NCBI GenBank assembly: GCA_041675285.1
Contig: JBAYTZ010000009.1
Coordinates: 10,601 to 74,600 of the forward strand
Source of the DNA: Candidatus Delongbacteria bacterium
GTDB taxonomy: Bacteria; CAIWAD01
Direction: 5' to 3'
Length of the DNA: 64,000 nt
Under the pieces are notes generated by a model that was not told the origin of the DNA, searched no databases, and was given only the letters and a program-made list of their open reading frames with translations. Position 1 is the stretch's first letter, and each line of letters starts with the position of its first letter. The translations under genes were made by a program, and so were the position numbers. This document shows, one piece after another, positions 25,931 to 59,384 of this stretch.

Positions 25931-25939
25931 AGATTTCTC

Positions 25940-41138: not shown

Positions 41139-42485
41139 GTGCCGGGCATTCGGCTGGTGGCCATCGGCGACGAGCTGCTGGACGGCCACACCCAGGACAC
41201 CAACAGCCGCGAGGTGGCCGCCGCCCTGGAAGAACTGGGCTTGCGACCGCTGGACGTCCACCTGATCCGCGACCACGAGGCGGCCATCCGGGCCGAGGTG
41301 GCGGCCCTGCTGGATCCCGCGGGCGGGCTGGAACTGGTGATCAGTTCGGGCGGGCTGGGCCCCACCCTGGACGACCGCACGCGCCAGGTCCTGGCCGCGG
41401 CCTTCGGCGCCGAATTGGTCTTTGACGAGACGCGCTGGCGCGAGCTGCAGGCCTGGTTCGCCGCTCGCGGCCGCGTGCCCGGGGAGCTGCAGCGCAGCCA
41501 GGCCCTCCACCCCGTCCCCGGCGGCGCGTTGCCCAACGAGGTGGGCACGGCCAACGGCCTGCTCTTCGAACGCGACGACCGGCTCTGGATCGCCCTGCCC
41601 GGGGTGCCCAGCGAGCTGCGCCACCTGCTGGCCTCCGGCGTGCTGCCCCTGCTGGCCCGGCGACTGGGCGCCCGGCCCCGGGGCCGCGTGCTGGCCTTCC
41701 GCAGCCGGCGCCTGCCCGAGGCGGATCTCTCCCAGCGGCTGGAGCCCCTGGCCGAGCTGGAGGCCCTGGGCGAGGTGGGCTTCTATCCCAGTCCGGACGG
41801 CGTGCTGTTGCGGCTGCGCCTGCCGGCCCTGGATCCGCCGGAGCTGGAAGCCCGTGCGGCGGCGGCCCGGCAGCTGGTGCGCGAGCGGCTGGGGGACTGC
41901 CTGCTGGCCGAGAGCGGCGCGCCGGTGGTGGAGCTGGTCTTCGCGGCCCTGTGCCGCAGGTCGGCCACGCTGGCCCTGGCCGAGTCCTGCACGGGGGGCT
42001 GGCTGGCCCGGGAACTGACGGATCTGCCGGGCAGCTCGGAGGTCTTTCCCGGCGGCGTGGTGGCCTATTCCAACGCCGTCAAGAGCGAGCTGCTGGGCGT
42101 GCCCCGGGAGCTGCTGGAGGAGCACGGGGCGGTCTCCGAGGCCTGCGCCGGGGCCCTGGCGCTGGGGGTCCGCCAGCGCCTGCGGGCGCAGTGGGGCCTG
42201 GCGCTGACCGGGATCGCCGGTCCTGCGGGCGGCACGCCGGACAAGCCCGTGGGCACGGTCTGGCTGGGGCTGGCCGGGCCGGAGTGTCTGCTCACGCGCC
42301 GGCTGGACCTGCGCGGCAACCGCGGCCAGATCCGCCAGCGGGCGGCGGGTCAGGCCTGGGCTTGGTTGCTTGAGATCCTGCAGGACACGAAGACCCAGAC
42401 GGGACACGCAGCTCACGAAGCTCACGAAGGGCAGGAAGAGCGGGAAGAGCGGGAAGGACCAACAAAGGATAGAGCCCGGCAGTGA
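41139..42485 (+). CDS. cinA: CinA family protein (MoCF-like N-domain + nicotinamide-nucleotide amidohydrolase PncC domain); 3' end runs into repeat element F
   Basis: LVAIGDELLDGHTQDTNS...; C-domain ESCTGGWLARELTDLPGSSEVFPGGVVAYSN. The last ~33 codons (DTKTQTGHAAHEAHEGQEEREEREG...) are translated repeat arm. GTG start. Confidence 0.88.
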   Translation: MPGIRLVAIGDELLDGHTQDTNSREVAAALEELGLRPLDVHLIRDHEAAIRAEVAALLDPAGGLELVISSGGLGPTLDDRTRQVLAAAFGAELVFDETRWRELQAWFAARGRVPGELQRSQALHPVPGGALPNEVGTANGLLFERDDRLWIALPGVPSELRHLLASGVLPLLARRLGARPRGRVLAFRSRRLPEADLSQRLEPLAELEALGEVGFYPSPDGVLLRLRLPALDPPELEARAAAARQLVRERLGDCLLAESGAPVVELVFAALCRRSATLALAESCTGGWLARELTDLPGSSEVFPGGVVAYSNAVKSELLGVPRELLEEHGAVSEACAGALALGVRQRLRAQWGLALTGIAGPAGGTPDKPVGTVWLGLAGPECLLTRRLDLRGNRGQIRQRAAGQAWAWLLEILQDTKTQTGHAAHEAHEGQEEREEREGPTKDRARQ

Positions 42486-42529
42486 ATCCGTTCATGGGCT
42501 CTTCGTGCTCGTCCCGAGTCTTCGTGTCC
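42383..42529. repeat. Paired inverted octamer-array element F (CACGAAG type)
   Basis: Left end GGACACGAAGAC (42383-94) is a perfect 12/12 inverted copy of the right end GTCTTCGTGTCC (42518-29). Left arm continues ...GCTCACGAAGCTCACGAAGGGCAGGAAGAGCGGGAAGAGCGGGAAGG. Right arm is CTCTTCGTGCTCGTCCCGAGTCTTCGTGTCC. Confidence 0.85.
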
Positions 42530-42630
42530 TACGAATCCAAGCCGGAGCGGCGCGCCATGACCGGTCTTTCCTCTTTGGATTTCTTCGCGTCTTCCCTTGG
42601 GCCCTGCGTGTCGGTTCGGAGGCAAGCGAG

Positions 42631-43215
42631 ATGACCCGCCGGTTGTTCATCGCGCTGGCGCTGCCGGAGGAGATCCGCGCCGAGCTGGGCCGCACGCGCG
42701 ACCAGCTTGCCAGCCGGCGGGATCGAATCAACTGGCTGCCCAGGGAGCAGCTCCACCTGACTCTGCGTTTTCTGGGGGACGTGGAGGAGGCGGAGATCCC
42801 TGCGCTGGACGCGCAATTGGAAGAGCTGGCCGCCCGCCACGCGCCGCTGGAGCTGAAGCTGGGCTTGCCCGGGATCTTTGGGCCGCCCGCCGCGCCGCGC
42901 GTGCTCTGGGTGGGGCTGGCCGGGTGGCTGGAGCCCCTGGAGCGCCTGGTGCGGGAGCTCGAGTCGCGCCTGCGCCGGCTGGGCCGGCCCCCGGCGGAGT
43001 CGGGCTTCAAGCCCCACCTGACCCTGGGGCGTGTGAAGCAGTGTCGGGCGGACCTGGCGGCGGCCCATCTGGCCTTTCCGCCCCTGCCCCTGGCCCTGCG
43101 CCTGGGCCACCTGCAGTTGATCGAGAGCCGGCTGCGGCCGGCTGGAGCCGAGCATCATGTCCTGACCCGGCATATCTTGAGTGGAAACGAACGCGAAGCA
43201 TCGACAGCGGAATAA
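42631..43215 (+). CDS. thpR: RNA 2',3'-cyclic phosphodiesterase (2H phosphoesterase, LigT/ThpR)
   Basis: Two HxTx motifs: HLTLRF and [21 protein letters not shown]-terminus. The upstream part of ORF 42370 is repeat-derived. Confidence 0.88.
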
Positions 43216-43223
43216 GAGGACTC

Positions 43224-44243
<1,020 letters not shown>

Positions 44244-44251
44244 GGCGAGGC

Positions 44252-44281
44252 GGGGTCCCGCGCCGGTGCGGGCGGGACCCC
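44252..44281 (+). terminator. GC-rich hairpin after recA
   Basis: GGGGTCCCGC-N10-GCGGGACCCC immediately after the recA stop. No clear T-tract. Confidence 0.45.
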
Positions 44282-44381
44282 GATCACACTGTGGTATTGG
44301 AACGCCCGCTGGGCAGGCCGCGCAACCGCGCGTCCGTCGTGATGGAGGGGAAGTGGGGAGCGCTCCGACCCGCTGCCAGCC

Positions 44382-45029
44382 ATGAGCCTCCTGCTACAGG
44401 CCGCGTTCCTGCTGCCGGCCTGGGGGCTGGGTGGTCTGCCCACCGGGGTCTGGCTTGCCCGCTGGCGCGGCGCGCCGGATCCCACCCAAACGGGCTCGGG
44501 CTCCAGTGGCGCCACCAACGTGGGTCGGCTGCTGGGCTGGCGCTGGGGCCTGCTCACGCTGCTGGTGGACCTGGGCAAGGGGCTGGCCGCCGCCGGACTG
44601 GCGCGCGGGCTGTCGGACTCGTCCGGCCTGGCCGCGGCTTGCGGGCTGGCGGCCGTGCTGGGGCACTGCGCCTCGCCCTGGGCCCGCTTCAAGGGCGGCA
44701 AGGGCGTGGCTACCGGGGCCGGGGCGGCCCTGATCCTGGCGCCGTGGGCCGCGTTGCTGGCCTTGCTGGGCATGGTGCTCGTCCTGCTGGCCAGCCGGCG
44801 GATGGCGCCGGCCTCCCTCGGTGGCGGCCTGCTCTATCCGCTGCTGCAGGGCGTGACCGGCGAGGGCGGCGCAGCCCCGACCGGCTACGCGCTCGGGCTG
44901 GCCCTGTTGCTGCTCTTCACCCATCGCCAGAATCTGGACCGACTGCGCCGCGGCGTGGAACCGACCCTCTGGGGCGCGCCCGCCGGGGATCCGCGCTGGC
45001 GTTCGCGACACGAGGAGCCCGAGCGCTGA
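44382..45029 (+). CDS. plsY: Glycerol-3-phosphate acyltransferase PlsY
   Basis: GSGSSGATNVGR and FKGGKGVATGAG motifs; multi-TM. Confidence 0.9.
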   Translation: MSLLLQAAFLLPAWGLGGLPTGVWLARWRGAPDPTQTGSGSSGATNVGRLLGWRWGLLTLLVDLGKGLAAAGLARGLSDSSGLAAACGLAAVLGHCASPWARFKGGKGVATGAGAALILAPWAALLALLGMVLVLLASRRMAPASLGGGLLYPLLQGVTGEGGAAPTGYALGLALLLLFTHRQNLDRLRRGVEPTLWGAPAGDPRWRSRHEEPER

Positions 45030-45039
45030 AAGGAGATTC

Positions 45040-46086
45040 GTGAACCGCCAGCCAGCACGAAGCCGCGCAACCGCCGCTGCCTCCCCGCGCGTGGCCGTGG
45101 CCGGGATGGGCTCCTGGGGCACGGCCCTGGCCCTGCTCCTGCACCAGCGCGGCTGCCGCGTGCGGGCCTGGGAGTACGACCCGGGCGTGGTGGAACGCTA
45201 CGCCAGGGGCGAACGCGAAGCCGTCTTCCTGCCGGGCATCTTCCTGCCGCCCGCCATTCACGTCCGGCAGGAGCTGGACTGGCTGCTGGAGGACGCCGAC
45301 TGGCTGGTGCTGGCCGTGCCCAGCCACACCCAGCGCGCGCTGCTGGGCCGGCTGGCGCCCCTGCTGCCGCCCGGCCTGCCGCTGGTGAACGTGGCCAAAG
45401 GCATCGAGCAGCGCAGCCTGCTGCGCCTCTCCCAGGTGGTGGCGGAAGTCCTGCCCGGCCACGATCCGGCGGCCTACGTCTGTCTGTCGGGACCCAGCCA
45501 CGCCGAGGAGGTCAGCCGCGACGTGCCCACCGCCGTGGTGGCCGCCGGCGGCTCGGCCGGCCTGCTGGAGGAAGTCCAGCGGCTGTTTTCCAGTTCCACC
45601 TTTCGCGTCTACCGCAACGGCGACCTGACGGGCGTGGAGCTGGGGGGCGCCTTGAAGAACGTCATCGCCCTGGCGGCGGGCATGTGCGACGGGCTGGGCT
45701 TCGGCGACAACACCAAGGCCGCCCTGATGACCCGCGGGATGGTGGAGATGGCCCGGCTGGGCACGGCCCTGGGCGGCCGGCCGGAGACCTTCAGTGGACT
45801 GGCGGGGATCGGCGATCTGATCGTCACCTGCGCCAGCCGCCACAGCCGCAACCGTGCCGTGGGCGAGCAGATCGGCCGGGGTCGCAGCCTGGAACAGGTC
45901 CTGGCCGGAATGGAGATGGTGGCCGAGGGCGTGCGCACCACCGAGGGCGCCCACGAGCTGGCCGGTCGCCTGGGTGTGGCCATGCCTATCACGGCCGCCG
46001 TGCACGCCATCCTCTTTGAAGGGCGCGATCCCCGCGAGGAGGTGGGCCGTCTGATGACCCGCGATCTCAAAGCCGAGGAGGCCTGA
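45040..46086 (+). CDS. gpsA: NAD(P)H-dependent glycerol-3-phosphate dehydrogenase
   Basis: VAVAGMGSWGTALA (Rossmann), NVAKGIE, GALKNVIALAAG. The exact start (GTG 45040 or downstream) is uncertain. Confidence 0.9.
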   Translation: MNRQPARSRATAAASPRVAVAGMGSWGTALALLLHQRGCRVRAWEYDPGVVERYARGEREAVFLPGIFLPPAIHVRQELDWLLEDADWLVLAVPSHTQRALLGRLAPLLPPGLPLVNVAKGIEQRSLLRLSQVVAEVLPGHDPAAYVCLSGPSHAEEVSRDVPTAVVAAGGSAGLLEEVQRLFSSSTFRVYRNGDLTGVELGGALKNVIALAAGMCDGLGFGDNTKAALMTRGMVEMARLGTALGGRPETFSGLAGIGDLIVTCASRHSRNRAVGEQIGRGRSLEQVLAGMEMVAEGVRTTEGAHELAGRLGVAMPITAAVHAILFEGRDPREEVGRLMTRDLKAEEA

Positions 46087-46364
46087 TGCCGCCCCTGATG
46101 CAATCGGAACAGCTGCTCTTCCAGGGGGACGTGCAGGGCGTGGGCTTCCGCTACGCCTTCAGCCGCCTGGCCCGGGAACAGGAGCTGGCAGGCTGGGTGC
46201 GCAACCTGCCCGACGGCTCGGTGGAAGCCGTGCTGCAGGGCGGGCGCGACAAGATCGCCGTGCTGATGCGCAAGGTCATGCTGCTCAGCGGCCGCGTGCG
46301 CATCACCCAGGTGGAGCAGCGCAAGGTCGAGTTGCCGCCCATCACGGGCTTCTCTGTCCGCTGA
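46086..46364 (+). CDS. acyP: Acylphosphatase
   Basis: 92 aa with the VQGVGFRY motif and WVRNLPDGSVEAVLQG. Confidence 0.9.
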   Translation: MPPLMQSEQLLFQGDVQGVGFRYAFSRLAREQELAGWVRNLPDGSVEAVLQGGRDKIAVLMRKVMLLSGRVRITQVEQRKVELPPITGFSVR

Positions 46365-46372
46365 ATCACACT

Positions 46373-46549
46373 CACCACGAAGGGCGGGAAGGGCGGAGAA
46401 GAGCACGAAGCCGCAGAGAGATGCAAGGACTGGGACGGGCCGGGCTGGGGGTGCCAAGGGCTTTCCCAGCCACCCTGTGTCCTGCTGGATCGAGCGGGAT
46501 AGCAGCGAAAAATCTTCGTGAGCTTCGCTGTCCTTCGTGAGCTTCGTGG
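46373..46549. repeat. Paired inverted octamer-array element G (CACGAAG type)
   Basis: Left arm CACCACGAAGGGCGGGAAGGGCGGAGAAGAGCACGAAG (46373-46410). 103-bp core. Right arm CTTCGTGAGCTTCGCTGTCCTTCGTGAGCTTCGTGG (46514-46549). Confidence 0.85.
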
Positions 46550-46581
46550 CGGAGCTTGTGGAATACAACGACGAGGACCAC

Positions 46582-47115
46582 ATGGATCTGGCGAACATCA
46601 TCCGCACCGTGCCGGATTTCCCCAAGCCGGGCATCGGCTTCAAGGACATCACGCCCATCCTGCAACAGCCGGCGGCCTTTGAGTGGTGCCTGCGCCGCCT
46701 GCTGGAGCTCTGCCCGCCCGCCGGTTTCGACGTGGTGCTGGGCATCGAGGCCCGGGGTTTCCTGTTCGGCGCCCCGCTGGCCTTGCGGGCCGGCAAACCC
46801 TTCGTCCCCGCGCGCAAGCCCGGCAAACTGCCCTGGAGGACCGTCAGCCGCAGCTACGAGCTGGAGTACGGGACGGACTCGCTCCAGGTCCACGCCGACG
46901 CCTGCGCGCCCGGCCAGCGCGTGCTGCTGGTGGACGACCTGCTGGCCACCGGCGGGACCCTGCTGGCCGCCGCCGGGCTGGTGCGCGACCTGGGTGGCCA
47001 GCCCGTCGCCGCCGCCTGCGTGCTCAACCTGAGCTTCCTGCCCGGCCGCGCCCGGCTGGAGGCGGCCGGCGTGCCCGTGCACGCCCTGCTGGACGTGGAT
47101 TCGGAAGAGTGCTGA
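46582..47115 (+). CDS. apt: Adenine phosphoribosyltransferase
   Basis: MDLANIIRTVPDFPKPGIGFKDITP...; PRPP motif VLLVDDLLATGGT. Start moved to ATG 46582 because the earlier ORF codons overlap the element G arm. Confidence 0.92.
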   Translation: MDLANIIRTVPDFPKPGIGFKDITPILQQPAAFEWCLRRLLELCPPAGFDVVLGIEARGFLFGAPLALRAGKPFVPARKPGKLPWRTVSRSYELEYGTDSLQVHADACAPGQRVLLVDDLLATGGTLLAAAGLVRDLGGQPVAAACVLNLSFLPGRARLEAAGVPVHALLDVDSEEC

Positions 47116-49265
47116 TGGATCCCGCCCGGCCCCCCGCCAGCCAGGCCGAGCTGGTGGCCCTGACCCGCGACCTGCAGCGCCACGCCCGGCTCTACTACGA
47201 CGAGGCCGCCCCCGAGCTCCCCGACGCCGAGTACGACCGCCGGCTGCAGCTCCTGGCCGCGGCCGAAGCCGAGCATCCGGACTGGGCCCTGCCTGATTCC
47301 CCCACCCGCCGGGTGGGCCAGCGGGAGACGGCGCGTACCGGCCGCCCCGAGGTCCGCCACGAACCCCGCCTCTACAGCCTGGCCAACGCCTACAGCGACG
47401 AGGAACTGGCCGATTTCGCGCGCCGCGTGGCCGAGGCCTTGGCGGCCGCGCCGCCCCAGCCCGACCTCTTTGCCCTTCCCAAACAACTGCCGGAACTGGT
47501 CTGGTCCTGCGAACTGAAGCTGGACGGGGCCAGCATCTCGCTGATCTACGAACAGGGCGAGCTGGTGCTGGCAGCCACGCGCGGAGACGGCGAGTCGGGC
47601 GAGGAAATCACGGCCCAGGCCCGACAGCTGAGCAACCTGCCCGCAACGCTGGCGCTGGACGCGCCGCCCGCCCGGCTGGTGGCGCGCGGCGAGGTGGTGC
47701 TGGAACACGCCGATTTCCAGGCCCTCAACGCCCGCCGCGCCGAGGCCGGCGAACGCCTGTTCGCCAACCCGCGCAACGCCGCCGCCGGCAGCCTGAAACT
47801 GCTGGATGCCGCCGAACTGCGGGCCCGCGGCCTCAAGGTCTTCCTCTACGATCTGGCCGTGCTGGAAGGAGCCGCAGCCCCCGCCACCCAGAGCGCCCAG
47901 CTGGACTGGCTGCGCCACGCCGGCCTGCCGGTCTTTCCGCACGCCGCGCGCTGCGCGGGACTGGCGGAGGTGCTGGCCTACTGCGCGCGCTGGGAGACGG
48001 AGCGCGCCGGGCTGCCGCTGGACACCGACGGCGTGGTGGTCAAGCTGGACGAGATTGCCCCGCGGGCCGGGCTGGGCTGGACGGCCAAGGCGCCGCGCTG
48101 GGCCGTGGCCCGCAAGTTTCCGGCCCAGGCCGTCCAAACCGTGCTGCGCGCCGTCACCTGGCAGGTGGGGCGCACGGGCGTGGTCACGCCGGTGGCCGAG
48201 CTGGAACCCGTCGCCGTGGCCGGTTCGGTCATCGCCCGGGCCACCCTGCACAACGAGGATGAGATCCAGCGCCGGGGCATCCGGCCCGGGATGCGGGTCT
48301 GGGTGGAAAAGGGCGGCGACGTGATCCCCAAGGTCACGGGCCCGGCGGAGGATCCGGCGGGCTTCCCTGCAGTGCAGGCGCCGGCGGACTGTCCGGAGTG
48401 CGGCCATGGGCTGCGGCGGGAGGAGGGGGAGTCGGCCCTGCGCTGCCTGAACCCGGGATGCCCGGCCGTGCGCCAGGCCGCGCTGGAGCATTTCGTCTCT
48501 CGGCCGGCCCTGGACTTGGAGGGGCTGGGGGATCGCCTTGTGGCCGAGTTGATCCGCCTGGGCCACCTGCGCGACGTCTCGGACCTCTTCCATCTGCGCC
48601 CGGAGCAACTGCTGGAATGTGAGCGGATGGGCGAGAAAAGTGTGTCGAACGTCATGCAATCCATTGAGATGGGGAAAACGCGCCCCCCCAGTCGCCTGCT
48701 CTTCGCCCTGGGCATCCGCGGAGTGGGAGCCAAGGCGGCGCGCACGCTGTTGCGGCACGCCGGCAGCCTGCGGGCCCTGGCCGCGCGTCCCGCGGAGGAA
48801 CTGCAGAACCTGGACGGGGTGGGTCCCGTGCTGGCGGCCAGCGTCACGCGCTGGTTCGCCCTCCCGGACAACCAGGAGTTGTTGAAACGACTGGAGTTGG
48901 GCGGCCTGGACCTGACGCGCGAGGAGCCCGACCGCGGTCCCGTGGCGGCCGGCGGCCCCTTCTGGGGACGAACCGTGGTGCTCACCGGCACCCTGGCCGG
49001 CCTGGAGCGCCGGGCGGCCCAGGCGCTGCTCGAAGCCCGCGGGGCCAAGGTCAGCTCCAGCGTCTCGGCCCGGACGCACTACGTGGTGGCCGGAGCGGAA
49101 GCCGGATCCAAGCTGGAGAAGGCCCGCGCCCTGGGCGTGCCCGTGCTGGACGAAGCCCAATTCCAGGCGCTGCTGCAGGCGGGGGACGCGGATTCCGCCG
49201 CGGACGCGAATCCGGAGCGGTTGAATCCAGATCCGCTTAGCCCGTTTGAACAGGAGTCATTGTAG
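47115..49265 (+). CDS. ligA: NAD-dependent DNA ligase
   Basis: Adenylation motif CELKLDG, Zn finger CPECGHGLRREEGESALRCLNPGC, HhH region, BRCT (VVLTGTL...). The ATG overlaps the apt stop. Confidence 0.95.
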   Translation: MDPARPPASQAELVALTRDLQRHARLYYDEAAPELPDAEYDRRLQLLAAAEAEHPDWALPDSPTRRVGQRETARTGRPEVRHEPRLYSLANAYSDEELADFARRVAEALAAAPPQPDLFALPKQLPELVWSCELKLDGASISLIYEQGELVLAATRGDGESGEEITAQARQLSNLPATLALDAPPARLVARGEVVLEHADFQALNARRAEAGERLFANPRNAAAGSLKLLDAAELRARGLKVFLYDLAVLEGAAAPATQSAQLDWLRHAGLPVFPHAARCAGLAEVLAYCARWETERAGLPLDTDGVVVKLDEIAPRAGLGWTAKAPRWAVARKFPAQAVQTVLRAVTWQVGRTGVVTPVAELEPVAVAGSVIARATLHNEDEIQRRGIRPGMRVWVEKGGDVIPKVTGPAEDPAGFPAVQAPADCPECGHGLRREEGESALRCLNPGCPAVRQAALEHFVSRPALDLEGLGDRLVAELIRLGHLRDVSDLFHLRPEQLLECERMGEKSVSNVMQSIEMGKTRPPSRLLFALGIRGVGAKAARTLLRHAGSLRALAARPAEELQNLDGVGPVLAASVTRWFALPDNQELLKRLELGGLDLTREEPDRGPVAAGGPFWGRTVVLTGTLAGLERRAAQALLEARGAKVSSSVSARTHYVVAGAEAGSKLEKARALGVPVLDEAQFQALLQAGDADSAADANPERLNPDPLSPFEQESL

Positions 49266-49298
49266 CCCAATTGGGAATACCGGCGCAATGGATCAGAT

Positions 49299-50044: not shown

Positions 50045-50046
50045 GC

Positions 50047-50508
50047 ATGGATTTCAATGAGATCCGCAAGCTGGTGAAACTCGTGGAGGCCTCGGCCATC
50101 TCCTCGCTGGAAGTGGAAGAGGGCGAGCTGAGCATCCGCATCGAGAAGCACACCCTGGCGCCCGCGCCCCTGCAGCCCGCGGGTCTGCCCGGCGGCTACG
50201 CGCCCGCGCCGGCCCCCGTCTACCAGATGGCTCCGGCGGCCGCCCCGCCCGCGCCGGCGACGGCCTCCCACCTGCTGGAGGTCAAGGCGCCCATGGTGGG
50301 CACCTTCTATCGCTCGCCCGGCCCGGACAAGGAGCCCTTCGTCAAGGTGGGCGACATGATCGCCCCCGGCAAGACCCTCTGCATCCTGGAAGCCATGAAG
50401 ATCATGAACGAGATCGAGGCGGAGCTGAGCGGCCGGGTGGTGGAGATCCTGGTGGAGAACGGCCAACCCGTCCAGTTCGACCAGGTCCTGTTCCGCATCG
50501 AACCCTGA
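50047..50508 (+). CDS. accB: Acetyl-CoA carboxylase biotin carboxyl carrier protein
   Basis: A/P-rich linker and the biotinylation motif [14 protein letters not shown]. Confidence 0.95.
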
Positions 50509-50520
50509 GACGAGGCGCCC

Positions 50521-51864
50521 GTGTTCAAACGCATGCTCATCGCCAACCGGGGCGAGATCGCGCTGCGGATCATCCGCGCCTGCCGGGAACTGAACATCGA
50601 GAGCGTGGCCGTCTACTCCACGGCGGACGCCGACAGCCTGCACGTCCGCTTCGCGGACGACGCCATCTGCATCGGTCCCCCGGCGTCCAGCGAGAGCTAC
50701 CTCAACACCCGGGCCATCCTGACGGCGGCCCAAATCACCCAGTGCGACGCGCTCCATCCGGGCTACGGCTTCCTCTCGGAGAATGCCGCCTTCGCCGACA
50801 TGTGCCGCGATCATGACCTGGCCTTCGTGGGCCCGCGCGGCGACGTGATCCGGCGGATGGGCGACAAGGCCGAGGCCAAGCGCACCATGCGCGAAGCCGG
50901 CGTGCCCTGCATCCCGGGCAGCCCGGGCCTGCTGGAGAGCGTGGAGGAGGCCCGCCAGTTCGCCGCCGAGGTGGGCTATCCGGTCATCCTCAAGGCCACG
51001 GCGGGGGGCGGCGGGCGCGGCATGCGCGTGGCCCGCGGTCCCGAAGAGTTGGAGAACGCCTTCAGCACGGCCCGCGCCGAGGCCGAGGCCGGTTTCGGCA
51101 ACCCGGGCCTCTACCTGGAGAAATTCCTCGAGCACCCGCGCCACGTGGAGCTGCAGATCCTGGGCGACAAGAAGGGCAACGTGATCCACCTGTTGGAGCG
51201 CGACTGCTCGGTCCAGCGCCGCCACCAGAAGCTGGTGGAGGAGTGCCCCAGCCCGGCGGTCAGCCCCGAGCTGCGCGAGCGGATGGGGCGCGCGGCGGTG
51301 AACGCGGCCAAGGCCGTGGGCTACGACAGCGCGGGCACGATGGAGTTCCTGGTGGAAGGCGGCGAGTTCTATTTCATGGAGATGAACACGCGCATCCAGG
51401 TGGAGCATCCCGTCACCGAGATGGTGACGGGCGTGGACCTGATCCGCCAGATGATCCGGGCGGCCCACGGCGATGCCATTGAATTCACCCAGGACGACAT
51501 CCGGCTCAATGGCCACGCCATCGAGTGCCGGATCAACGCCGAGGACCCGGCCAAGGGCTTCCGGCCCTTCGCCGGCCTGATCGGCGCGCTCAACGTGCCA
51601 GGTGGGATCGGCGTGCGCGTGGACAGCCACATCTACCAGGGCTATCAGATTCCGCCCAACTACGACAGCCTGCTGGGCAAGCTGATCGTCCACGCTCCCA
51701 CCCGGGAGAAGGCCCTGGACCGCATGCGCCGCGCCCTCAGCGAGTACGTGATCGAAGGGGTGAAGACCACCATCCCCTTCCACCTGCAGCTGATGTCCGA
51801 TCCGGTCTTCCGCTCGGGCGAATTCGACATCAAATTTTTGGAACACTGGACTTTTCAAGGCTAA
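50521..51864 (+). CDS. accC: Acetyl-CoA carboxylase biotin carboxylase subunit
   Basis: [17 protein letters not shown]..., ATP-grasp [30 protein letters not shown] start. Confidence 0.97.
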
Positions 51865-51916
51865 GTCTCACCGGGACCCGCGGGGTCCGGTGGAACCCAC
51901 ATACATGGAGAGACAC

Positions 51917-52297
51917 ATGAACATTCCGGGCAACCTGCTGTACACGGAAGAGCACGAGTGGGTGCTGGTGGAGGACGGAACCGTCCTGATCGGCATCACG
52001 GACCACGCCCAGGGCGAACTGGGGGACATCGTGGACGTGCAGTTGTTCGAGGTCGGGGCCGAGTTCCAGAAGGGACAGAGCATCGGCACCATCGACGCCG
52101 TCAAGGCCACGGCGGACATCTACGCGCCGGTCTCGGGCGTGATCCAGGAGTTCAACGAAGATCTCCCGGACGGACCGGACACCCTGAACCAGGACCCCTA
52201 CGGCCGCGGCTGGATCTACAGGATCCGCCTGACCGACCTAAGCGAGCTGGACGAGCTGCTCAGCCCCGAGGACTACGAAGAGCACATCGACATGTAG
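51917..52297 (+). CDS. gcvH: Glycine cleavage system H protein
   Basis: YTEEHEWV...GITDHAQGELGDIV...; lipoyl-lysine region IDAVKATADIYAPVSG. Start at ATG 51917. Confidence 0.93.
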   Translation: MNIPGNLLYTEEHEWVLVEDGTVLIGITDHAQGELGDIVDVQLFEVGAEFQKGQSIGTIDAVKATADIYAPVSGVIQEFNEDLPDGPDTLNQDPYGRGWIYRIRLTDLSELDELLSPEDYEEHIDM

Positions 52298-52359
52298 TCC
52301 CGCGGCCCGGCGAGGGCCCCGGCCTTCGCCTGCCAGTCCGCTGCCTGCCAGACCCCAAG

Positions 52360-52391
52360 ACGGCGGACCATCCGGTCCGCCGTTTGTTTTT
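52360..52391 (+). terminator. Canonical rho-independent terminator between gcvH and gcvPA
   Basis: ACGGCGGACC-ATCC-GGTCCGCCGT followed by TTGTTTTT. Confidence 0.75.
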
Positions 52392-52429
52392 GAGTTCGCC
52401 CGGCCCGCCGCCGGGAAACCGGAGGATCC

Positions 52430-53803
52430 ATGCCCTACATTCCGCATACAGAGGCCGACCGCCGCGACATGCTGGCGGCCATCGGTGTGGCGCGCTTCGA
52501 GGACCTGCTCGAGAGCGTGCCGGAGTCCCTGCGCCAGACCCGCCCGCTGGAGCTGGCCGAACCGCTCTCCGAGGCCGCGCTGACCCGCCACGTGGGCGAG
52601 CTGGCGGCCCGCAATCAGCCCTGGCCGCCCCAGGACTGCTATCTGGGCGGCGGTTCCTACGTGGGCCACCTGCCCGAGACCGTGCGCAGCCTGGCCATGC
52701 GCTCCGAGTTCATCACGGCCTACACGCCCTATCAAGCAGAAGTAAGCCAGGGCACGCTCCAGACCATCTTCGAATTCCAGACCATGGTCAGCGAGCTGGC
52801 CGGCCTGGAGCTGGCCAACGCCTCGCTCTACGACGGCGCCACCGCGCTGGTGGAGGGCGTGCGCATGGCCCTGTCCGTCAAGCAGGACAAGGAGCCCGCC
52901 CGGCGCCGCGTGCTGGTGGCGGCCCAGCTGAACCCGCGCTGGCTGGACGTGCTGCGCACCTACCTGCATCCCCTGGCGGGCGAGGTGGAGCTGGAACTGC
53001 TGGGCGTCGGCGCCAGCCGGCTCAGCCCGGAGAGCCTGGTCGCCCGGCTGGGTGCGGACGTGGCCGCCGTGGTGGTGCAGAGCCCCAACGCGCTGGGCCT
53101 GATCGAGGACGTGGCCCCGCTGGCCGCCGCCGCCCACGAGGCCGGCGCCCTGCTGGTGCAGGGCTTCGATCCGCTGGCCGTGGCCCTGTTCGAGTGCCCG
53201 GGCGAGGTCGGCGCGGACATCGCCGTGGCCGAGGGCCAGTCCATCTCCCAGCCCCTGCAGTTCGGCGGCCCCTACATCGGGCTGTTCGCGGCCCGCGGCG
53301 ACCTGGTCAAATACATGCCCGGCCGGCTGATCGGCGAGACCCTGGACGCCGTGGGCGCCCGGGGCTACGTGCTGACCTTTCAGACCCGCGAGCAGCACAT
53401 CCGCCGGGAAAAGGCCACCAGCAACATCTGCACGAACCAGGCCCTGGTGGCCACCTTCGCCACCATCCACCTGGCCCTGCTGGGGCCGGTGGGCCTGCGC
53501 GAGAAGGCCCAGTCCCTCTACACCCGCTGTGCCTGGCTGGCCGAGCGCGCGGCCGCGCTGCCCGGCGTGAGCCTGATGGGCGCGGGCGAGCGCTTCCGCG
53601 AGTTCGCCCTGCATGTGCCGCGGCGCGACGCCGTGCTGGCCCGCATGCGCGCGGCCGGGCTGGCTGCAGGCCTGCCCCTGCCCGCGGAGCTGGGCGCCGA
53701 ACTGCTGCTGGTGGCCGTGAACGAACTGCAGGAGCAGGCCGACCTCCAGCGCTGGCTGGACGGGCTGGCCGCCGCCCTGCGCGAGGAGGGAACCCATGCC
53801 TGA
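52430..53803 (+). CDS. gcvPA: Glycine dehydrogenase (decarboxylating) subunit 1
   Basis: MPYIPHTEADRRDMLAAIG...FITAYTPYQAEVSQGTLQTIFEFQTMV... Confidence 0.95.
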   Translation: MPYIPHTEADRRDMLAAIGVARFEDLLESVPESLRQTRPLELAEPLSEAALTRHVGELAARNQPWPPQDCYLGGGSYVGHLPETVRSLAMRSEFITAYTPYQAEVSQGTLQTIFEFQTMVSELAGLELANASLYDGATALVEGVRMALSVKQDKEPARRRVLVAAQLNPRWLDVLRTYLHPLAGEVELELLGVGASRLSPESLVARLGADVAAVVVQSPNALGLIEDVAPLAAAAHEAGALLVQGFDPLAVALFECPGEVGADIAVAEGQSISQPLQFGGPYIGLFAARGDLVKYMPGRLIGETLDAVGARGYVLTFQTREQHIRREKATSNICTNQALVATFATIHLALLGPVGLREKAQSLYTRCAWLAERAAALPGVSLMGAGERFREFALHVPRRDAVLARMRAAGLAAGLPLPAELGAELLLVAVNELQEQADLQRWLDGLAAALREEGTHA

Positions 53804-55247
53804 GTTGATCTTCGAGAAATCCCGTCCCGGCGCCGGCAGCTTCACGGCGGCCACGGGCGGCGTGAATTTCGGCGGCCTGGAGCCGCGCCTGCCCCAGCGG
53901 GGCCTGCGCACGCGACCCCTGGGTCTGCCCGAGGTGGTGGAAGGCGAAGTGGTGCGCCACTACCTGGGCCTTTCCACGTTGAACCACCACGTGGACAAGG
54001 ACTTCTACCCGCTGGGTTCCTGCACCATGAAGTACAACCCCAAGGTCAACGACGGACTGGCCCTTTTGCCCGGCTTCACGGGCCTGCATCCCGCGCAGCC
54101 CGCCGCCGAGGCCCAGGGGGCGTTGACCCTGCTCTGGGAGCTGGGCGAGGCCCTCAAGACCATCAGCGGCATGGACGCCGTGACCCTGCAGCCCGTGGCC
54201 GGCGCCCACGGCGAGCTGACCGCCCTGTTCATGATCCGCGCCTACCACGAAAAGCTGGGCCGGCCGCGCCGCAAGGTGATCATCCCCGACGCCGCCCACG
54301 GCACCAACCCTGCTTCCATCGCCATGTCGGGCTACGAGGTGGTCCAGGTGAAGAGCGCGGCCGACGGCTGCATGGATCTGGAGGCCCTGAAGGCCCTGCT
54401 GGACGAGGACGTGGCCGCCTTCATGATCACCAACCCCAACACGGTGGGGATCTTCGAGCGCCACATCGTGGAGATCAACGAGCTGGTGCACGCCGTGGGC
54501 GCCCTGAGCTACATGGACGGCGCCAACTTGAACGCCCTGCTGGGCATCGTCAAGCCCGGCGAGCTGGGCTTCGACATCATGCACATCAACCTGCACAAGA
54601 CCTTCAGCGTGCCCCACGGCGGCGGCGGCCCGGGAGCCGGCCCCCTGGTGGTCAAGCAGCGGCTGGCGCCCTTCCTGCCCGGACCGCTGCCCGTGCGCGC
54701 CGGCGAGCAGGTGGTCTGGGGCGAGCCCGGCCCGGATTCCATCGGCCCCGTCCACGCCTACTTCGGCAACTTCGGCGCGCTGGTGCGGGCCTACGCCTAC
54801 ATCCGCCGGTTGGGCGCCCGCGGCCTGCGCCGCGTCTCCGAGTACGCGATCCTCAACGCCAACTACGTGCGCGTCGGCCTGCAGGACCTCTACAAGGTCG
54901 GCTTCGAGGGCATCCCCTTGCACGAGGTGGTGTTCAGCGCCATCAACCAGAAGCGGCTGGGCTACAAGGCCAGCCACATCGCCAAGCGCCTGCTGGACTT
55001 CGGCCTGCACGCGCCCACCACCTACTTCCCGCTCATCGTGCCCGAGGCCCTGATGGTCGAACCCACCGAGACGGAGAGCCGGGCCACGCTGGACCGCTTC
55101 ATCGCGGCCATGCGCCAGATCCACCGCGAGTGCGAGGAAAAGAACCCGCTGCTGGAGAGTGCGCCGAACACCACGCCCGTCCGCAAGCTGGACGACGTGC
55201 GGGCCGTCAAGCAGCCGCGCCTGCGCTGGCGAAAGGAACAGGATTGA
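53796..55247 (+). CDS. gcvPB: Glycine dehydrogenase (decarboxylating) subunit 2
   Basis: LGSCTMKYNPK...; PLP-lysine region MHINLHKTFSVPHGGGGPG. Overlaps gcvPA by 8 nt. Confidence 0.95.
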   Translation: MPELIFEKSRPGAGSFTAATGGVNFGGLEPRLPQRGLRTRPLGLPEVVEGEVVRHYLGLSTLNHHVDKDFYPLGSCTMKYNPKVNDGLALLPGFTGLHPAQPAAEAQGALTLLWELGEALKTISGMDAVTLQPVAGAHGELTALFMIRAYHEKLGRPRRKVIIPDAAHGTNPASIAMSGYEVVQVKSAADGCMDLEALKALLDEDVAAFMITNPNTVGIFERHIVEINELVHAVGALSYMDGANLNALLGIVKPGELGFDIMHINLHKTFSVPHGGGGPGAGPLVVKQRLAPFLPGPLPVRAGEQVVWGEPGPDSIGPVHAYFGNFGALVRAYAYIRRLGARGLRRVSEYAILNANYVRVGLQDLYKVGFEGIPLHEVVFSAINQKRLGYKASHIAKRLLDFGLHAPTTYFPLIVPEALMVEPTETESRATLDRFIAAMRQIHRECEEKNPLLESAPNTTPVRKLDDVRAVKQPRLRWRKEQD

Positions 55248-58153
55248 GACCTCCCACCGCCCTGCTGGCCGCCCTGGGGCTGACCCGCTTCGTCGCCCTG
55301 GACCTGGAGACCACGGGGCTCGAGGAGGATTGCGAGATCATCGAGATCGGCCTGGCCTGCTATGAAGCGGGCCAGGTCGCGTCCCGGATCTCCACGCTGG
55401 TGAAACCCTCCGGGCCCGTGCCGCCCCGCATCCTGCACCTGACCGGCATCGATCCGCGCAAGCTCAAGAAGGCCCAGCCGCTGGAGGCCGTCCTGGACGA
55501 GGTCCTGGCGGCCATTGGCGATTCACCCATCGTGGCCCATAATCTGGCCTTTGACCAGGGCGTGCTGCAGCGCTGCGCGGCCCGGGCCGGCCGAGCCTGG
55601 CGTCCGCTGGCGGCGGGGCTGGACACGGTGCCCCTGGCGCGCTGCCTGCTGCCGCTCAATCCCAGCCACCGGCTGGCCGAGGTGGCCGCCACCCTGGCCG
55701 TGCCGCTGGAGAACGCCCACCGCGCGCTGGACGACGCCGAGGCCGCCGGGGAAATCCTGCTCAGCCTGCTGCAGTTGGGAACGGGGCTGGAGCTGCCGCT
55801 GCTGCGACGTCTGGCCCTGCTGGCCGGCGGCACGGGCGATCCGCAGGAAGGGATCTTCCAGGGCCTGCTGGACTGGGTCAAGCGCGAGGGTCCGGGCCCG
55901 GCCTGGCGCCAAGCCCAGCCGCCCTGCCGGGTCAACGTCTACGAATGCGAAGGCGCGGGCGGGGCGGGGGAGTCCGCCTTTGACGCCACCCAGTGGTTTG
56001 GGGCCGACGGGCGCCTGCAGGCCGCCGTGGAGGGCTTTCGGCGCCGGCCCCAACAGGAGGAGCTGGCCCGCGAGGTGGGTCTGTTGCTGGACGCGGCTCC
56101 CGCGGAAGGGAAGACGGCCTGCTGGGTGGCCGAGGCCGCCACGGGCACGGGCAAATCCTTCGCCTACCTCCTGCCCGCCATGCTCACCGGCGCGGCGCGC
56201 CGGGACGCCGGCGGCGGCCCCGTGCTGGTCAGTACGCACACGCGCAACCTGCAGGACCAGCTTTTCGACAAAGACATCCCGCGGCTGGGCCGCCTGTTGC
56301 GCCGGCCCTTCCGCGCCACGGTGCTCAAGGGCCGGGGCAACTACCTCTGCCAGCGTCGGCTGGAGCGCTTGCTGGACGAGGCCCGCGAGCGGCTGTCGCC
56401 CGCCGACCGCCTGGCCCTGCTGCCCGTTGTGAGCTGGGCGGCCCTGACGCGCTCGGGCGACATCGAGGAGTGCACGGGTTTCCGGGCCCACCAGCTGCCG
56501 CGCCTCTGGAGCCAGGTGCGCAGCGAGGGCTCGGCCTGCGCCAACCCGGGCTGCCGCGGCTCGGCCGCCCAACCCGAGGCCCCGGCCGTCTGCTGGGGCG
56601 CCCGCGCCCGCCTGCAGGCCCAGGCTTCGCACCTGGTGGTGGTCAATCACAGCCTGCTCTTGGCCGACCTGGGCGTGGACCACGGCGTGCTGGGCAGCTT
56701 CGACACCTTGATCGTCGACGAAGCCCACCAGTTCGGCCGCAGCGCCGATCAGCACCTGCGGCGCAGTTTCTCCTTCGCCCTGACCGAGGGGCGTCTGCGG
56801 GCCCTGCATGATCCCCAGGGCCAGGGGCGCGGCCTGCTCAAACAGTTGCGCGCCGCCTGGAGCGCGCGGGACGCCGCCCTCCAGCAGGTGGAGCCCGGCC
56901 TGCGCGGGCTGGAGTCCGTGGCCGAGGCCGTGGACGCCGCGCTGGAACCCGTGTTGCGGGCCCGCGCCGCCCTGGCCGCCGTGCAGAAGGAGCGCCACGG
57001 TGCGGCCCTGCAGCGTTCGCGCTACACGCAGAAGGAGCGCCTGAAGGGCGAGAATTCCCCCCTGCGCCTGTTGGCCGAGCCCTGTCGCCAGGTGGAGGAG
57101 GGGCTGGCCGGACTGGCCGGCGCCCTGCGCAGCTGCCTGGGGCTGCTGGAGTCGGCCCGCGAGGAAAACCTGCTGGCCCTGGTGGCCGAGCTGCGCGGCG
57201 AGCAGGAGAACCTGTTGGAGGCCGCGGCCCTGCTGGCTCTGCTGCTCGAGGAGGACGACGAAGGCGGCGAGGCCGTCACTTGGAGCGAGCTGCATCCGGT
57301 GAGCCTGGAGACCACATTCATCCGCCTGCCCGTGGAGGCCGGTCCGCGCCTGCACGAAACGCTCTGGAGTGGCCTGCGGCGCGTGCTCTTCACCAGCGCC
57401 ACGCTGACGGTGGACAGTTCCTTCGACTGGCTGCTGCGCCGGCTGGGCCTGGACCGGCTGCCCGAGCCCGCCCGCACCCTGGTCTTCGACAGCCCTTTCG
57501 ACCTGGCGCGCCAGGCCCGCTGCTACGTGCCCACCTGGCTGCCCGAGGCTTCGGGCTACTCCACCGATGCGTTCGCACTTGAACTGGCGAAACTGCTGGC
57601 CCTGACCTGCGAGCAGTTCGGGCGCGGCACGCTCGTGCTGTTCACCAGCTACACGCTGCTCAGCCGCTGCCAGACAGCTCTCCAGGCGGCCCTGGACACG
57701 GAGCGCTTCCCGCTGCTCGTGCAGGGCCTGGACGGCTCGCGCCACGAACTGCTGGACCGCTTCCGCCAACTGGGCCACGCCGTGCTGCTGGGGGTGGATT
57801 CCTTCTGGGAGGGCGTGGACGTGCCCGGCGAAGCCCTGCAGATCCTGGTGATGACCAAGCTGCCCTTCGACGTGCCGGGCGAGCCGCTGCTGGACGCGCG
57901 CAGCGAGCGCATCCAGCGCACGGGCGGCAACGCCTTCCGCGACCTGAGCGTGCCCGAGGCGGTGATCCGCTTCCGCCAGGGTTTCGGCCGGCTGATCCGC
58001 CACGAGACGGACAAGGGTGCCTTCCTGCTGCTGGACGCCCGGGTGGTGCGCCAGGAATACGGCAAGGTCTTCCTGGACAGCCTGCCGCTGCCCGCGCGGC
58101 CCATGTTGCGGCCGGAGGACTTGCAGCGCGAGCTGCGCAACTTCTTTGCCTAG
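55244..58153 (+). CDS. dinG: DinG-family ATP-dependent helicase with N-terminal DEDDh (DnaQ-like) 3'-5' exonuclease domain
   Basis: Exo motifs FVALDLETTGL, IVAHNLAFD, HRALDDAEA. Helicase motifs AEAATGTGKSFAYLLPA and LIVDEAHQF. The proposed TTG start at 55244 overlaps the gcvPB stop, but the exact start is uncertain. Confidence 0.85.
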   Translation: MRPPTALLAALGLTRFVALDLETTGLEEDCEIIEIGLACYEAGQVASRISTLVKPSGPVPPRILHLTGIDPRKLKKAQPLEAVLDEVLAAIGDSPIVAHNLAFDQGVLQRCAARAGRAWRPLAAGLDTVPLARCLLPLNPSHRLAEVAATLAVPLENAHRALDDAEAAGEILLSLLQLGTGLELPLLRRLALLAGGTGDPQEGIFQGLLDWVKREGPGPAWRQAQPPCRVNVYECEGAGGAGESAFDATQWFGADGRLQAAVEGFRRRPQQEELAREVGLLLDAAPAEGKTACWVAEAATGTGKSFAYLLPAMLTGAARRDAGGGPVLVSTHTRNLQDQLFDKDIPRLGRLLRRPFRATVLKGRGNYLCQRRLERLLDEARERLSPADRLALLPVVSWAALTRSGDIEECTGFRAHQLPRLWSQVRSEGSACANPGCRGSAAQPEAPAVCWGARARLQAQASHLVVVNHSLLLADLGVDHGVLGSFDTLIVDEAHQFGRSADQHLRRSFSFALTEGRLRALHDPQGQGRGLLKQLRAAWSARDAALQQVEPGLRGLESVAEAVDAALEPVLRARAALAAVQKERHGAALQRSRYTQKERLKGENSPLRLLAEPCRQVEEGLAGLAGALRSCLGLLESAREENLLALVAELRGEQENLLEAAALLALLLEEDDEGGEAVTWSELHPVSLETTFIRLPVEAGPRLHETLWSGLRRVLFTSATLTVDSSFDWLLRRLGLDRLPEPARTLVFDSPFDLARQARCYVPTWLPEASGYSTDAFALELAKLLALTCEQFGRGTLVLFTSYTLLSRCQTALQAALDTERFPLLVQGLDGSRHELLDRFRQLGHAVLLGVDSFWEGVDVPGEALQILVMTKLPFDVPGEPLLDARSERIQRTGGNAFRDLSVPEAVIRFRQGFGRLIRHETDKGAFLLLDARVVRQEYGKVFLDSLPLPARPMLRPEDLQRELRNFFA

Positions 58154-58164
58154 GACTTTTGCTT

Positions 58165-58304
58165 GGACACGAAGCACGGGAAGAGATCGAAGAGCACGAA
58201 GGGGAGAACAGGTGGGAGTCATGCGCAGGGCGCTCGAGTTGCCACCCGCGTTCCAAAGCCAATTCAGGCTTCGTGTTCTTCCGAGCTTCGTGGACTTCGT
58301 GTCC
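58165..58304. repeat. Paired inverted octamer-array element H (CACGAAG type)
   Basis: Left arm GGACACGAAGCACGGGAAGAGATCGAAGAGCACGAAGG (58165-58202). 65-bp core. Right arm GCTTCGTGTTCTTCCGAGCTTCGTGGACTTCGTGTCC (58268-58304). The terminal 10-mers GGACACGAAG/CTTCGTGTCC are perfect inverted copies. Confidence 0.85.
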
Positions 58305-59332: not shown

Positions 59333-59384
59333 TTAGAACGCTCAGGCGCTACCTTGGCCTCGTCCAAGCAGCAACCGGAGCCTG

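Follow-up and report, generated by a model that had tools for sequence, protein, structure and literature searches.

Intergenic CACGAAG arrays of a Candidatus Delongbacteria contig as probable worn copies of a foldback-type insertion element associated with GxxExxY nuclease genes

In a stretch of 64,000 nucleotides from a Candidatus Delongbacteria bacterium (contig JBAYTZ010000009.1 of assembly GCA_041675285.1, positions 10,601 to 74,600; the whole 64 kb stretch is hereafter the window), the spacers between cinA and thpR, acyP and apt, and dinG and mce each contain an element, designated F, G, and H, respectively. In all three, a row of CACGAAG-type units is followed by an unrelated core and then by the complementary row, the two rows pointing inward. 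What kind of DNA are these elements, and how did they come to lie between the genes? A reading of the window from the sequence alone had described an insertion-like repeat family in the positions expected of terminators or RNA-stability structures; the first part of that interpretation stood, the second was not supported, and it had missed a protein-coding full-length form as well as a very wide taxonomic spread. F, G, and H are probably degenerate copies, devoid of an open reading frame (ORF), of a small foldback-type insertion element that would have spread horizontally through many bacterial phyla and of which the complete form carries the gene of a GxxExxY nuclease. For the window itself the outcome is modest, the three sites being apparently decaying insertions and not regulatory signals.

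All three elements were found where the sequence-only reading had placed them, with the architecture that it described, and the names given to the flanking genes were correct by Pfam content. The inverted termini are exact: GGACACGAAGAC (42383-42394) and GTCTTCGTGTCC (42518-42529) agree at 12 of 12 positions in F, CCACGAAG (46375-46382) and CTTCGTGG (46542-46549) at 8 of 8 in G, and GGACACGAAG (58165-58174) and CTTCGTGTCC (58295-58304) at 10 of 10 in H. Counted on both strands, CACGAAG reaches 33 occurrences in the window; dinucleotide-preserving shuffles, from which the chance level was taken, gave 7.27 +/- 2.95 (largest 14), and 15 of the 33 occurrences are held by the F, G, and H sites. The unit consists of CACGAAG plus two bases and recurs at a spacing of 9-10 bp as detected by Tandem Repeats Finder, for example as the series CACGAAGCT CACGAAGGG CAGGAAGAG CGGGAAGAG CGGGAAGGA with a step of about 9 bp in F. 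Degenerate units such as CGGGAAG, GGAGAAG, and ATCGAAG are numerous in the three elements, the arms of F are unequal (about eight units on the left vs three on the right), and no ORF was found inside any of the three cores. Upon folding of the full elements as single strands, a check that had been suggested earlier, all three closed end to end, at -62.7 kcal/mol for F (z -4.39), -93.5 kcal/mol for G (z -5.60), and -67.5 kcal/mol for H (z -5.64), and in each case none of 200 shuffles was as stable.

The state of the same spacers in relatives was examined on a graded series of syntenic contigs, obtained from homologues of adenine phosphoribosyltransferase (Apt); identities are those of Apt unless another protein is named, and contigs and loci are cited by L numbers. 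The window belongs to a landfill-metagenome contig of 268,807 bp (ENA ERZ27247358), and the closest species-representative genome was a metagenome-assembled genome (MAG) labelled Acetofilamentum sp. (LigA 91%). At 93% identity (L207 and L208) G was present, with arms and core conserved at about 85-90%, and at 89% (L209) the same spacer held a different element, TCACGAAGAACGCGAAGAACACGAAGG, with an unrelated core of 170 bp and a decayed right arm; the F site lay outside these contigs. At 84% (L203) the cinA-thpR spacer measured 9 bp and the acyP-apt spacer 55 bp, the latter with no arrays, while the corresponding spacers at 82% (L205 and L206) were 4 bp and 123 bp, again with no arrays in the latter. 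At 74% and 71% (L330 and L331, respectively) neither spacer contained arrays. The dinG-mce spacer of L527, a further locus of the L203 contig (Mce 82%), was 118 bp long and free of arrays, and on the contig of one further relative the acyP end was joined to F-arm-like sequence. Insertion-like presence and absence, for which the sequence-only reading had proposed to inspect these spacers, was found. The array-free spacers of the syntenic relatives indicate that F, G, and H are lineage-specific insertions, and judged by the same comparison the acyP-apt spacer has been struck by elements more than once. Absent from close relatives, the elements are therefore not conserved regulatory DNA. Within recA of L205 a run of N was noted at about 7900-8000 (masked sequence or a scaffold gap), because of which recA was left uncalled there.

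By comparison with the relatives, the true start of ThpR is at 42631, and therefore a block of 235 bp (about 42386-42620) is extra DNA, longer than had been stated for F. The CinA frame (41139..42485) reads through the left arm of F to a C-terminal tail ...LQDTKTQTGHAAHEAHEGQEEREEREGPTKDRARQ and the stop. In this frame the ancestral last six codons or so were lost and at least 28 codons run into F, with a tail rich in His, Glu, and Arg; array-encoded protein tails (HEEHE... or ...LRDLRDLR) were likewise observed beside elements in L228 and L310.

Complete elements with CACGAAG arms were detected in Methylobacter, Syntrophobacteraceae, Oscillochloris, Phycisphaerales, Desulfobacteraceae, and Brocadiia by scanning 185,579 species genomes for CACGAAGNNCACGAAG. 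The layout common to them is CAC-CACGAAG(NN CACGAAG)n - core - (CTTCGTG NN)n CTTCGTG-GTG. The further copies expected by the sequence-only reading were found: the 24-base arm pattern CACCACGAAGNNCACGAAGNNCACGAAG gave at least 120 matches vs about 0.004 expected by chance in 1.2e12 positions, and these arms are found in more than 20 bacterial phyla. The hosts among the matches listed include Binatia, Planctomycetota, Verrucomicrobiota, Kiritimatiellia, Victivallales, Acidobacteriota, Gemmatimonadaceae, Gallionellaceae, Thioalkalivibrio, Mariprofundus, Methylomirabilales, Chloroflexia, Thermotogae, invertebrate symbionts, and the isolate Methylobacter luteus IMV-B-3098, and one MAG was often the source of several of these listed copies. 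Elements are also carried by viral or proviral contigs.

The form of the arms was determined from 324 non-redundant arrays. The step between units was 9 bp in 609 of 680 cases, the two-base spacers were mostly GA, AG, AA, and GG, and the five bases outside the first unit were T (62%), T (70%), C (68%), A (94%), and C (98%). The consensus arm, reading inward, is TTCAC-CACGAAG-GA-CACGAAG-AG-CACGAAG, with about three 9-bp units per end, and CACAGAG, CATGAAG, CGCGAAG, and others occur as variant units. At the variable spacer positions 16 and 14 of 57 partner arms agreed vs 11.9 and 10.6 expected; partner arms are hardly more alike than arms of different elements, and therefore the constraint is on sequence and not on base pairing. 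When an arm profile built from 230 arms of other genomes was run with nhmmer on the window, its three best places in the 64 kb were the right arm of G (46551-46529, E 1.3e-4, the best match), the left arm of F (42414-42433, E 5e-4), and the right arm of H (58304-58286, E 8e-3); the left arm of G was matched at 46372-46385 with E 0.11. The termini of G are ctCAC-CACGAAG and CTTCGTGGcg, and only G of the three keeps CAC-CACGAAG, which in F and H is replaced by GGA-CACGAAG, vs 94% A and 98% C at these positions of the family. By the profile matches F, G, and H are members of the cross-phylum arm family, but worn ones. A long, compound, and one-sided array was seen on an Anaerolineae contig (L021, 1134-1301), where eight CACGAAG units interleaved with GGTAAAC are directly followed by eleven TTTCAC(G/T) units, just upstream of a response-regulator-like gene.

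Among 105 arm pairs, the core ranged from 6 to about 470 bp, with short hairpins as the commonest form and a cluster at 374-428 bp. Members of one subfamily of minimal 64-bp hairpins share the loop TTCGGA-N10-TCCGAA (24 nt) across lineages, and only this one subfamily has such a shared loop. Elements nested within elements were found in L271, L335, and L046, and the arms of some elements are non-complementary (L070, with CACAGAG on the left and CTTCGTG on the right, L119, and L094). Both neighbouring genes were resolved for 71 of 103 elements, of which 42 lie between co-directional, 18 between convergent, and 11 between divergent genes, frequently 1-50 nt past a stop codon. Elements with other units (ACGCCAAG/ACGCAAAG, CGCAAAG) were observed beside or inside CACGAAG-armed elements in L105 (about 3330-3480), L271 (3276-3461), L335 (4208-4384), and L046 (3963-4131), and a homologous nested insert is present in both L335 and L046, which belong to different MAGs.

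The core cluster at 374-428 bp is where a gene appears. Five of its seven elements (L009, L339, L367, L377, and L395) have between their arms an ORF of about 123 amino acids (aa) for a GxxExxY protein, complete or nearly so, and the other two (L358 and L415) gave no GxxExxY match; a sixth complete copy is in L409, and further copies were cut by the locus ends. The assignment rests on matches to TIGR04256 'GxxExxY protein' (E 1.4e-43 for L071 and E 3.8e-42 for L009) and to PF13366 PDDEXK_3 (E 3e-42 for L071). In its canonical complete form the element reads ttTCAC-CACGAAGrrCACGAAGgaCACGAAG-ATGGAATTTGAyGAG...stop-CTTCGTGnnCTTCGTGnnCTTCGTG-GTGAa, so that the start codon adjoins the last unit and GAAGGA of the preceding unit occupies the Shine-Dalgarno (ribosome-binding site) position. 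The enclosed proteins of Desulfobacteraceae, Chromatiales, and Planctomycetota are 63-78% identical to one another, and the residues E27, D67, and E77-L-K79, the PD-(D/E)XK set, are kept. On the Planctomycetota contig L395, a group II intron (RF02005, RF00029) was noted at 4592-5244, about 4 kb from the GxxExxY cassette. On plasmid 1 of Gemmatirosa kalamazoonensis (L524, 993392-994556), a GxxExxY gene is directly followed by a complete small CGCAGAG hairpin (CCGCAGAGGACGCAGAGGGCCGCAGAGG ... CCTCTGCGTCCTCTGCGTCCTC), and the same record has three GxxExxY places.

The association was then approached from the protein side, blind to the arrays, with 77 GxxExxY genes from very diverse lineages and 144 displaced control windows. 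Of the 77 genes, 35 are preceded within 90 bp by an exact tandem 7-mer array and followed by its complement, vs 0 of the 144 controls; when a tandem array on one side was enough, the figures were 66 of 77 vs 20 of 144. The flanking units were CACGAAG in most cases, CATGAAG or CACAGAG in others. The type of the flanking unit tracks the relatedness of the proteins: for 47 of 57 the nearest neighbour shared the type, vs 30.1 expected (maximum 42 in 500 shuffles), and therefore gene and arms travel together. Among cultured organisms, Mariprofundus sp. EBB-1 has a GxxExxY cassette with CACGAAG and CACAGAG units mixed in one arm, Bacteroides finegoldii an annotated GxxExxY gene between gttCACCACAGAGGACGCAGAGGACACGGAGG and CTCTGTGACCTCTGTGTCCTCTGTGGTGaaa, and Stieleria tagensis a cassette with CACGAAG arms. 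The family is very large, with at least 8000 clusters, and the contigs of many members measure 0.5-1.5 kb, as would be expected if the repeat interrupts assembly. In Steczkiewicz et al. 2012 (PMC3424549), PDDEXK_3 is entered as a family of unknown function with 'multiple transfers, mixed clades'.

In about 240 loci chosen by arms alone, no gene other than GxxExxY recurred between the arms. ORFs in longer cores (L228, L278, and L295) matched no Pfam family, no transposase was found between arms, and no transposase or recombinase gene recurred near the elements. Arm 'pairs' more than 1 kb apart were rejected as elements; they enclose ordinary genes (sigma factor, phage portal protein, capsid protein, thioredoxin-like protein) and are better read as separate half-sites. 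The gene upstream of the GxxExxY cassette was co-oriented in 37 of 40 cases, which suggests a promoterless cassette expressed by read-through from the host gene.

The kinship that the sequence-only reading had supposed between the CACGAAG sites and a second set of sites with CACAGAG units was borne out. The two units are mixed in one arm (L455) or form one arm each of a single element (L070), and both flank GxxExxY genes; the mixing and the shared gene therefore settle that the two 'families' are variants of one thing.

The following course of events is proposed for F, G, and H. The GxxExxY protein of about 123 aa (PF13366/TIGR04256, PD-(D/E)XK nuclease fold) would be the mobility enzyme, binding, probably in multimeric form, the units repeated at either end and cutting at the TTCAC/C boundary, so that the segment is moved or copied without target duplication. 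ORF-less forms would be moved in trans or represent deletion products. The cassette sits just downstream of a co-oriented host gene and is probably transcribed by read-through. The arrival of F, G, and H in the intercistronic spacers of cinA-thpR-recA, acyP-apt-ligA, and dinG-mce would postdate the separation from relatives with about 83% protein identity, and the three copies would now be decaying, with irregular units and unequal arms, and the long mRNA hairpins that they could form would be a by-product. No target-site duplication was enriched at offsets of 0-8 and lengths of 2-8 among 127 family members, and F, G, and H likewise show no such duplication. As a tentative generalisation, held with less than even confidence, GxxExxY proteins (PF13366) might be the mobility nucleases of an unrecognised class of prokaryotic element, namely a single gene without promoter between foldback ends in which 9-bp binding sites are repeated in tandem. 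Such a cassette would insert behind host genes without target duplication and would have left ORF-less hairpins by the thousand in more than 20 phyla. The chance that the elements form a new class is substantial.

Several points weigh against the proposal that a GxxExxY-bearing element gave rise to F, G, and H. No GxxExxY gene or remnant was detected in 69 kb of the source contig or in L121, L207, L209, and L123 by hidden Markov model (HMM) at E<=10, and an active GxxExxY partner in the source genome would be hypothetical. Contigs of four metagenomes over 41500-47500 included relatives, with no joint that skips F or G, and the relatives with empty sites are too diverged for exact junctions. 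Most array elements are ORF-less with unrelated cores, a poor fit to the classical burst of one non-autonomous copy, and in about ten cases the GxxExxY gene is placed between two complete hairpins instead of inside one. To our knowledge, a 123-aa nuclease as the sole mobility enzyme is without precedent. The structure model of GxxExxY is poor (pLDDT 54), too weak for a fold search, and a sequence search of the PDB gave no solved relative of it. The movement of the elements is itself deduced from comparison of sequences.

Could the arrays move while the gene is a passenger? An alternative that is judged unlikely, yet is the foremost among the competitors, holds that the arrays are mobile or recombinogenic ends and GxxExxY is only cargo, such as a defence or addiction nuclease, with an unlinked host or element enzyme moving them; or that the gene homes into pre-existing array hairpins via cutting and copying, with the 27-bp arms as homology. 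It draws on short hairpins with cores of 6-40 bp as the commonest form, on elements lying within the arms of other elements, on the hybrid arms of L070, L119, and L094, on the target duplication that was not found, and on the identity of 59-64% between GxxExxY proteins of different flank types, which may mean that the unit sequence is not read closely by the protein. Against it, GxxExxY is the sole recurrent gene between arms in the arm-picked loci, longer 'pairs' hold only ordinary genes, and no transposase or recombinase gene recurs near the elements. Homing alone, moreover, does not account for arrays at new intergenic sites, such as a cinA-thpR spacer of 4-9 bp.

The view of the elements as RNA structures of the host, located between co-transcribed genes and kept as terminator, attenuator, or mRNA stabiliser for a useful hairpin, goes back to the sequence-only reading and is now considered very unlikely. 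The hairpins are indeed strong, the elements lie between co-directional genes 0-14 nt past the stop codon, and ATTTTAAAT follows H. However, orthologous spacers of relatives lack the elements and L209 has a different one in the same spacer. No T-tract follows F (tacgaatcc) or G (cggagcttg), only H being followed by attttaaat, and a consensus scan revealed no terminator pattern at element ends. Compensatory pairing, that is, covariation of the arms, was absent at the variable spacer positions, and in some elements the arms are not even complementary. No Rfam 15 family was matched at the gathering score or E-value threshold, the only matches being sub-threshold ones to generic miRNA-precursor hairpins for a minimal element.

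Still less credible is the idea that the arrays are bound by a global DNA-binding protein of the host, either IHF/HU-like or some other regulator, as proposed for Geobacter metallireducens by Aklujkar et al. 2009 (PMC2700814), who read such pairs in this way. Short repeated units, paired arrays on opposite strands, and a constraint on sequence rather than on pairing would all fit a regulator; the same 30-bp terminus in more than 20 phyla beside unrelated genes, the patchy occurrence among close relatives, and the enclosure of one particular selfish-looking gene would not, and divergent promoter regions make up only 11 of the 71 resolved contexts. Local replication slippage of heptamer-to-nonamer simple repeats, with no insertion or horizontal transfer, is equally improbable and as a sole cause already contradicted: it may change the number of units, which varies between arms and copies, and a heptamer-repeat excess in bacterial intergenic DNA has been described (Rehm 2015, PMC4692102), but it cannot make unrelated cores or a whole 235-bp block missing in relatives, and it leaves unexplained the conserved non-repeated terminus TTCAC and the same unit in many phyla. 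No supporting feature was seen for telomere-like or protein-primed end repeats, integron attC sites, CsrA-type binding repeats, or uptake sequences, and these possibilities were dropped.

Paired arrays of this architecture have precedents. In G. metallireducens, Aklujkar et al. 2009 (PMC2700814) described 21 paired sites in which three tandem repeats TCTCCGTS[Y] (class 2) lie on opposite strands at variable distance, with octamer and heptamer units in classes 1 and 3; the sites are intergenic, including one between proB and proA, are absent from G. sulfurreducens, and were ascribed to IHF/HU or to a global regulator not yet identified. They agree in architecture with the elements described here, and the unit is similar in look, TCTCCGTG being the complement of CACGGAGA, but the description concerns one genome and makes no tie to a protein-coding form, insertion polymorphism, or other phyla (PMC2700814). 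Rehm et al. 2015 (PMC4692102) reported GGGAATC heptamer arrays of Xanthomonas, in 70-75 convergent pairs per genome, and GGGGA(C/T)T arrays of Nostoc, about 90% of them intergenic, mostly between co-directional genes and near the upstream ORF, with lengths varying between close relatives. These G-rich arrays were interpreted as G-quadruplex formers, and their positions are mostly conserved between two Xanthomonas species (PMC4692102). They share with F, G, and H the tandem 7-mers on one strand followed by a complementary array, but differ in their G-rich units, and no defined terminus, associated gene, insertion polymorphism, or other phyla were reported for them (PMC4692102). Compared by description only, F, G, and H match the Geobacter and Xanthomonas paired arrays in having tandem 7-9-mers with a nearby complement at variable distance in intergenic DNA. 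The short tandemly repeated repetitive (STRR) heptamers of cyanobacteria are a further case of heptamer arrays.

REP/REPIN sequences of Enterobacteria and Pseudomonas are imperfect palindromes with a GTAG head and are associated with RAYT, a Y1 HUH transposase that is usually single-copy. The REPIN-RAYT pair offers the closest functional analogy, with many intergenic hairpin repeats, a small gene within inverted repeats, no target duplication, and a preference for gene 3' ends. The partner here, however, is PF13366 PDDEXK_3/TIGR04256 and not a Y1 HUH enzyme, the terminus is TTCAC with a row of 9-bp units, and GxxExxY genes are many (at least 8000 clusters) whereas RAYT is usually single-copy. 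F, G, and H resemble MITEs (miniature inverted-repeat transposable elements) in being short, non-coding, and intergenic, with inverted ends and presence or absence between relatives; membership fails on target-site duplication and on a core shared per genome, and no DDE transposase partner was found. Inverted ends of short tandem repeats around variable middles also characterise foldback (FB) transposons, which are eukaryotic. Full-text literature searches with the GxxExxY/PDDEXK_3 family names gave no link to such arrays, and searches by sequence string found CACGAAG only in primers and no matches for CACAGAGACACAGAG in bacteria.

Paired 7-9-mer arrays were known from single genomes, as regulator sites in 2009 and quadruplex formers in 2015, with a mechanism never established. 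The new links are those of the array family to insertion polymorphism, of a sharp 30-bp terminus to more than 20 phyla, and of the arms to GxxExxY/PDDEXK_3, and a descriptive puzzle becomes testable as nuclease binding and cutting of the arms. If the proposal is true, these elements would be very small mobile DNA of a new kind and would also account for the Geobacter 'paired tandem repeat' sites and possibly for the Xanthomonas and cyanobacterial heptamer arrays. They would matter for annotation, as the frames of neighbours (here CinA) run into arms, and for metagenome assembly, many GxxExxY genes being on contigs of 0.5-1.5 kb, and the protein might find use as a compact sequence-specific nuclease.

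A scan of the whole window for degenerate units detected only eight places, F, G, and H and five with CACAGAG units (Table 1); H was recovered by the exact-match count only and not by the degenerate-unit score. The cores of F, G, H, and the three CACAGAG elements are mutually unrelated. In the element at 25710..25931 each arm has three units, all exact on the left and one with a substitution in the spacer base on the right. Its core (25737-25905), about 170 bp and A+T-rich within a G+C-rich genome, is clearly foreign sequence, and no coding similarity to GxxExxY was detectable in it.

Table 1. Coordinates of the array elements and associated features in the window
Feature	Position	Strand	Description
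F, left arm	42383..42458	+	about 8 units, 9-bp step: CACGAAGAC, CCAGACGGG, ACACGCAGCT, CACGAAGCT, CACGAAGGG, CAGGAAGAG, CGGGAAGAG, CGGGAAGGA
F, core	42459..42495	.	no relation to G or H cores
F, right arm	42496..42529	-	CTCTTCGTG, CTCGTCCCG, AGTCTTCGTG, TCC; complement of left-arm units
Extra inserted DNA 3' of F	42530..42620	.	pyrimidine-rich units (CTTTCCTCTTTGGATTTCTTCGCGTCTTCCCTTGG) at about 42560-42612; missing in relatives (cinA-thpR 9 and 4 bp)
G, left arm	46373..46410	+	CAC-CACGAAGGG, CGGGAAGGG, CGGAGAAGAG, CACGAAG; starts 9 nt past acyP stop codon
G, core	46411..46513	.	103 bp, own inner hairpins; conserved along with arms in L207 and L208 (93% identity)
G, right arm	46514..46549	-	CTTCGTGAG, CTTCGCTGTC, CTTCGTGAG, CTTCGTGG
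H, left arm	58165..58201	+	GGA-CACGAAGCA, CGGGAAGAG, ATCGAAGAG, CACGAAG; starts 12 nt past dinG stop codon
H, core	58202..58268	.	unrelated to F and G cores
H, right arm	58269..58304	-	CTTCGTGTT, CTTCCGAG, CTTCGTGGA, CTTCGTGTCC
Sister element, CACAGAG units	25710..25931	.	8-bp spacing; terminus ttttaCCACAGAG / CTCTGTGGtag
Sister element, CACAGAG units	20032..20201	.	CCACAGGGACACAGAGGCACAGAGAG ... CTCTGTGTCTCCGTGGCTCTGTG
Sister element, CACAGAG units	18809..19074	.	CCACAGAGATGCAGAGGCACAG ... CCGTGTCTCTGTGTCTCCGTGTCTCTGTG
Solitary right-type arm	14029..14054	-	CTCTGTGTCTCTGTGACTCTGTGGTG
Solitary right-type arm	59309..59333	-	CTCTGTGCCTCCGTGTCTCTGTGGT; end of 650-bp mce-uvrC spacer

The mce-uvrC spacer (58736-59384) measures 650 bp in the window vs about 125 bp in the relative L527. 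It contains an 11-bp tandem repeat, CGGTGCCAGGC in 6.8 copies at 59063-59137, bracketed by two direct repeats of about 30 bp, ctggcgccagcagaaaggtggaagacatgg and ctggcgacagcagaagggtggaaatcaagg, and several hairpins with GGGATGAC ends (58811-58850 and 59208-59285). A GxxExxY relic suspected in this spacer from tblastn (E 0.006 in a tiny database) was unconfirmed by a 72-sequence HMM and was rejected. Elsewhere in the window, a bacterial small SRP RNA gene was identified at 36841-36938 (Rfam RF00169, 68.8 bits).

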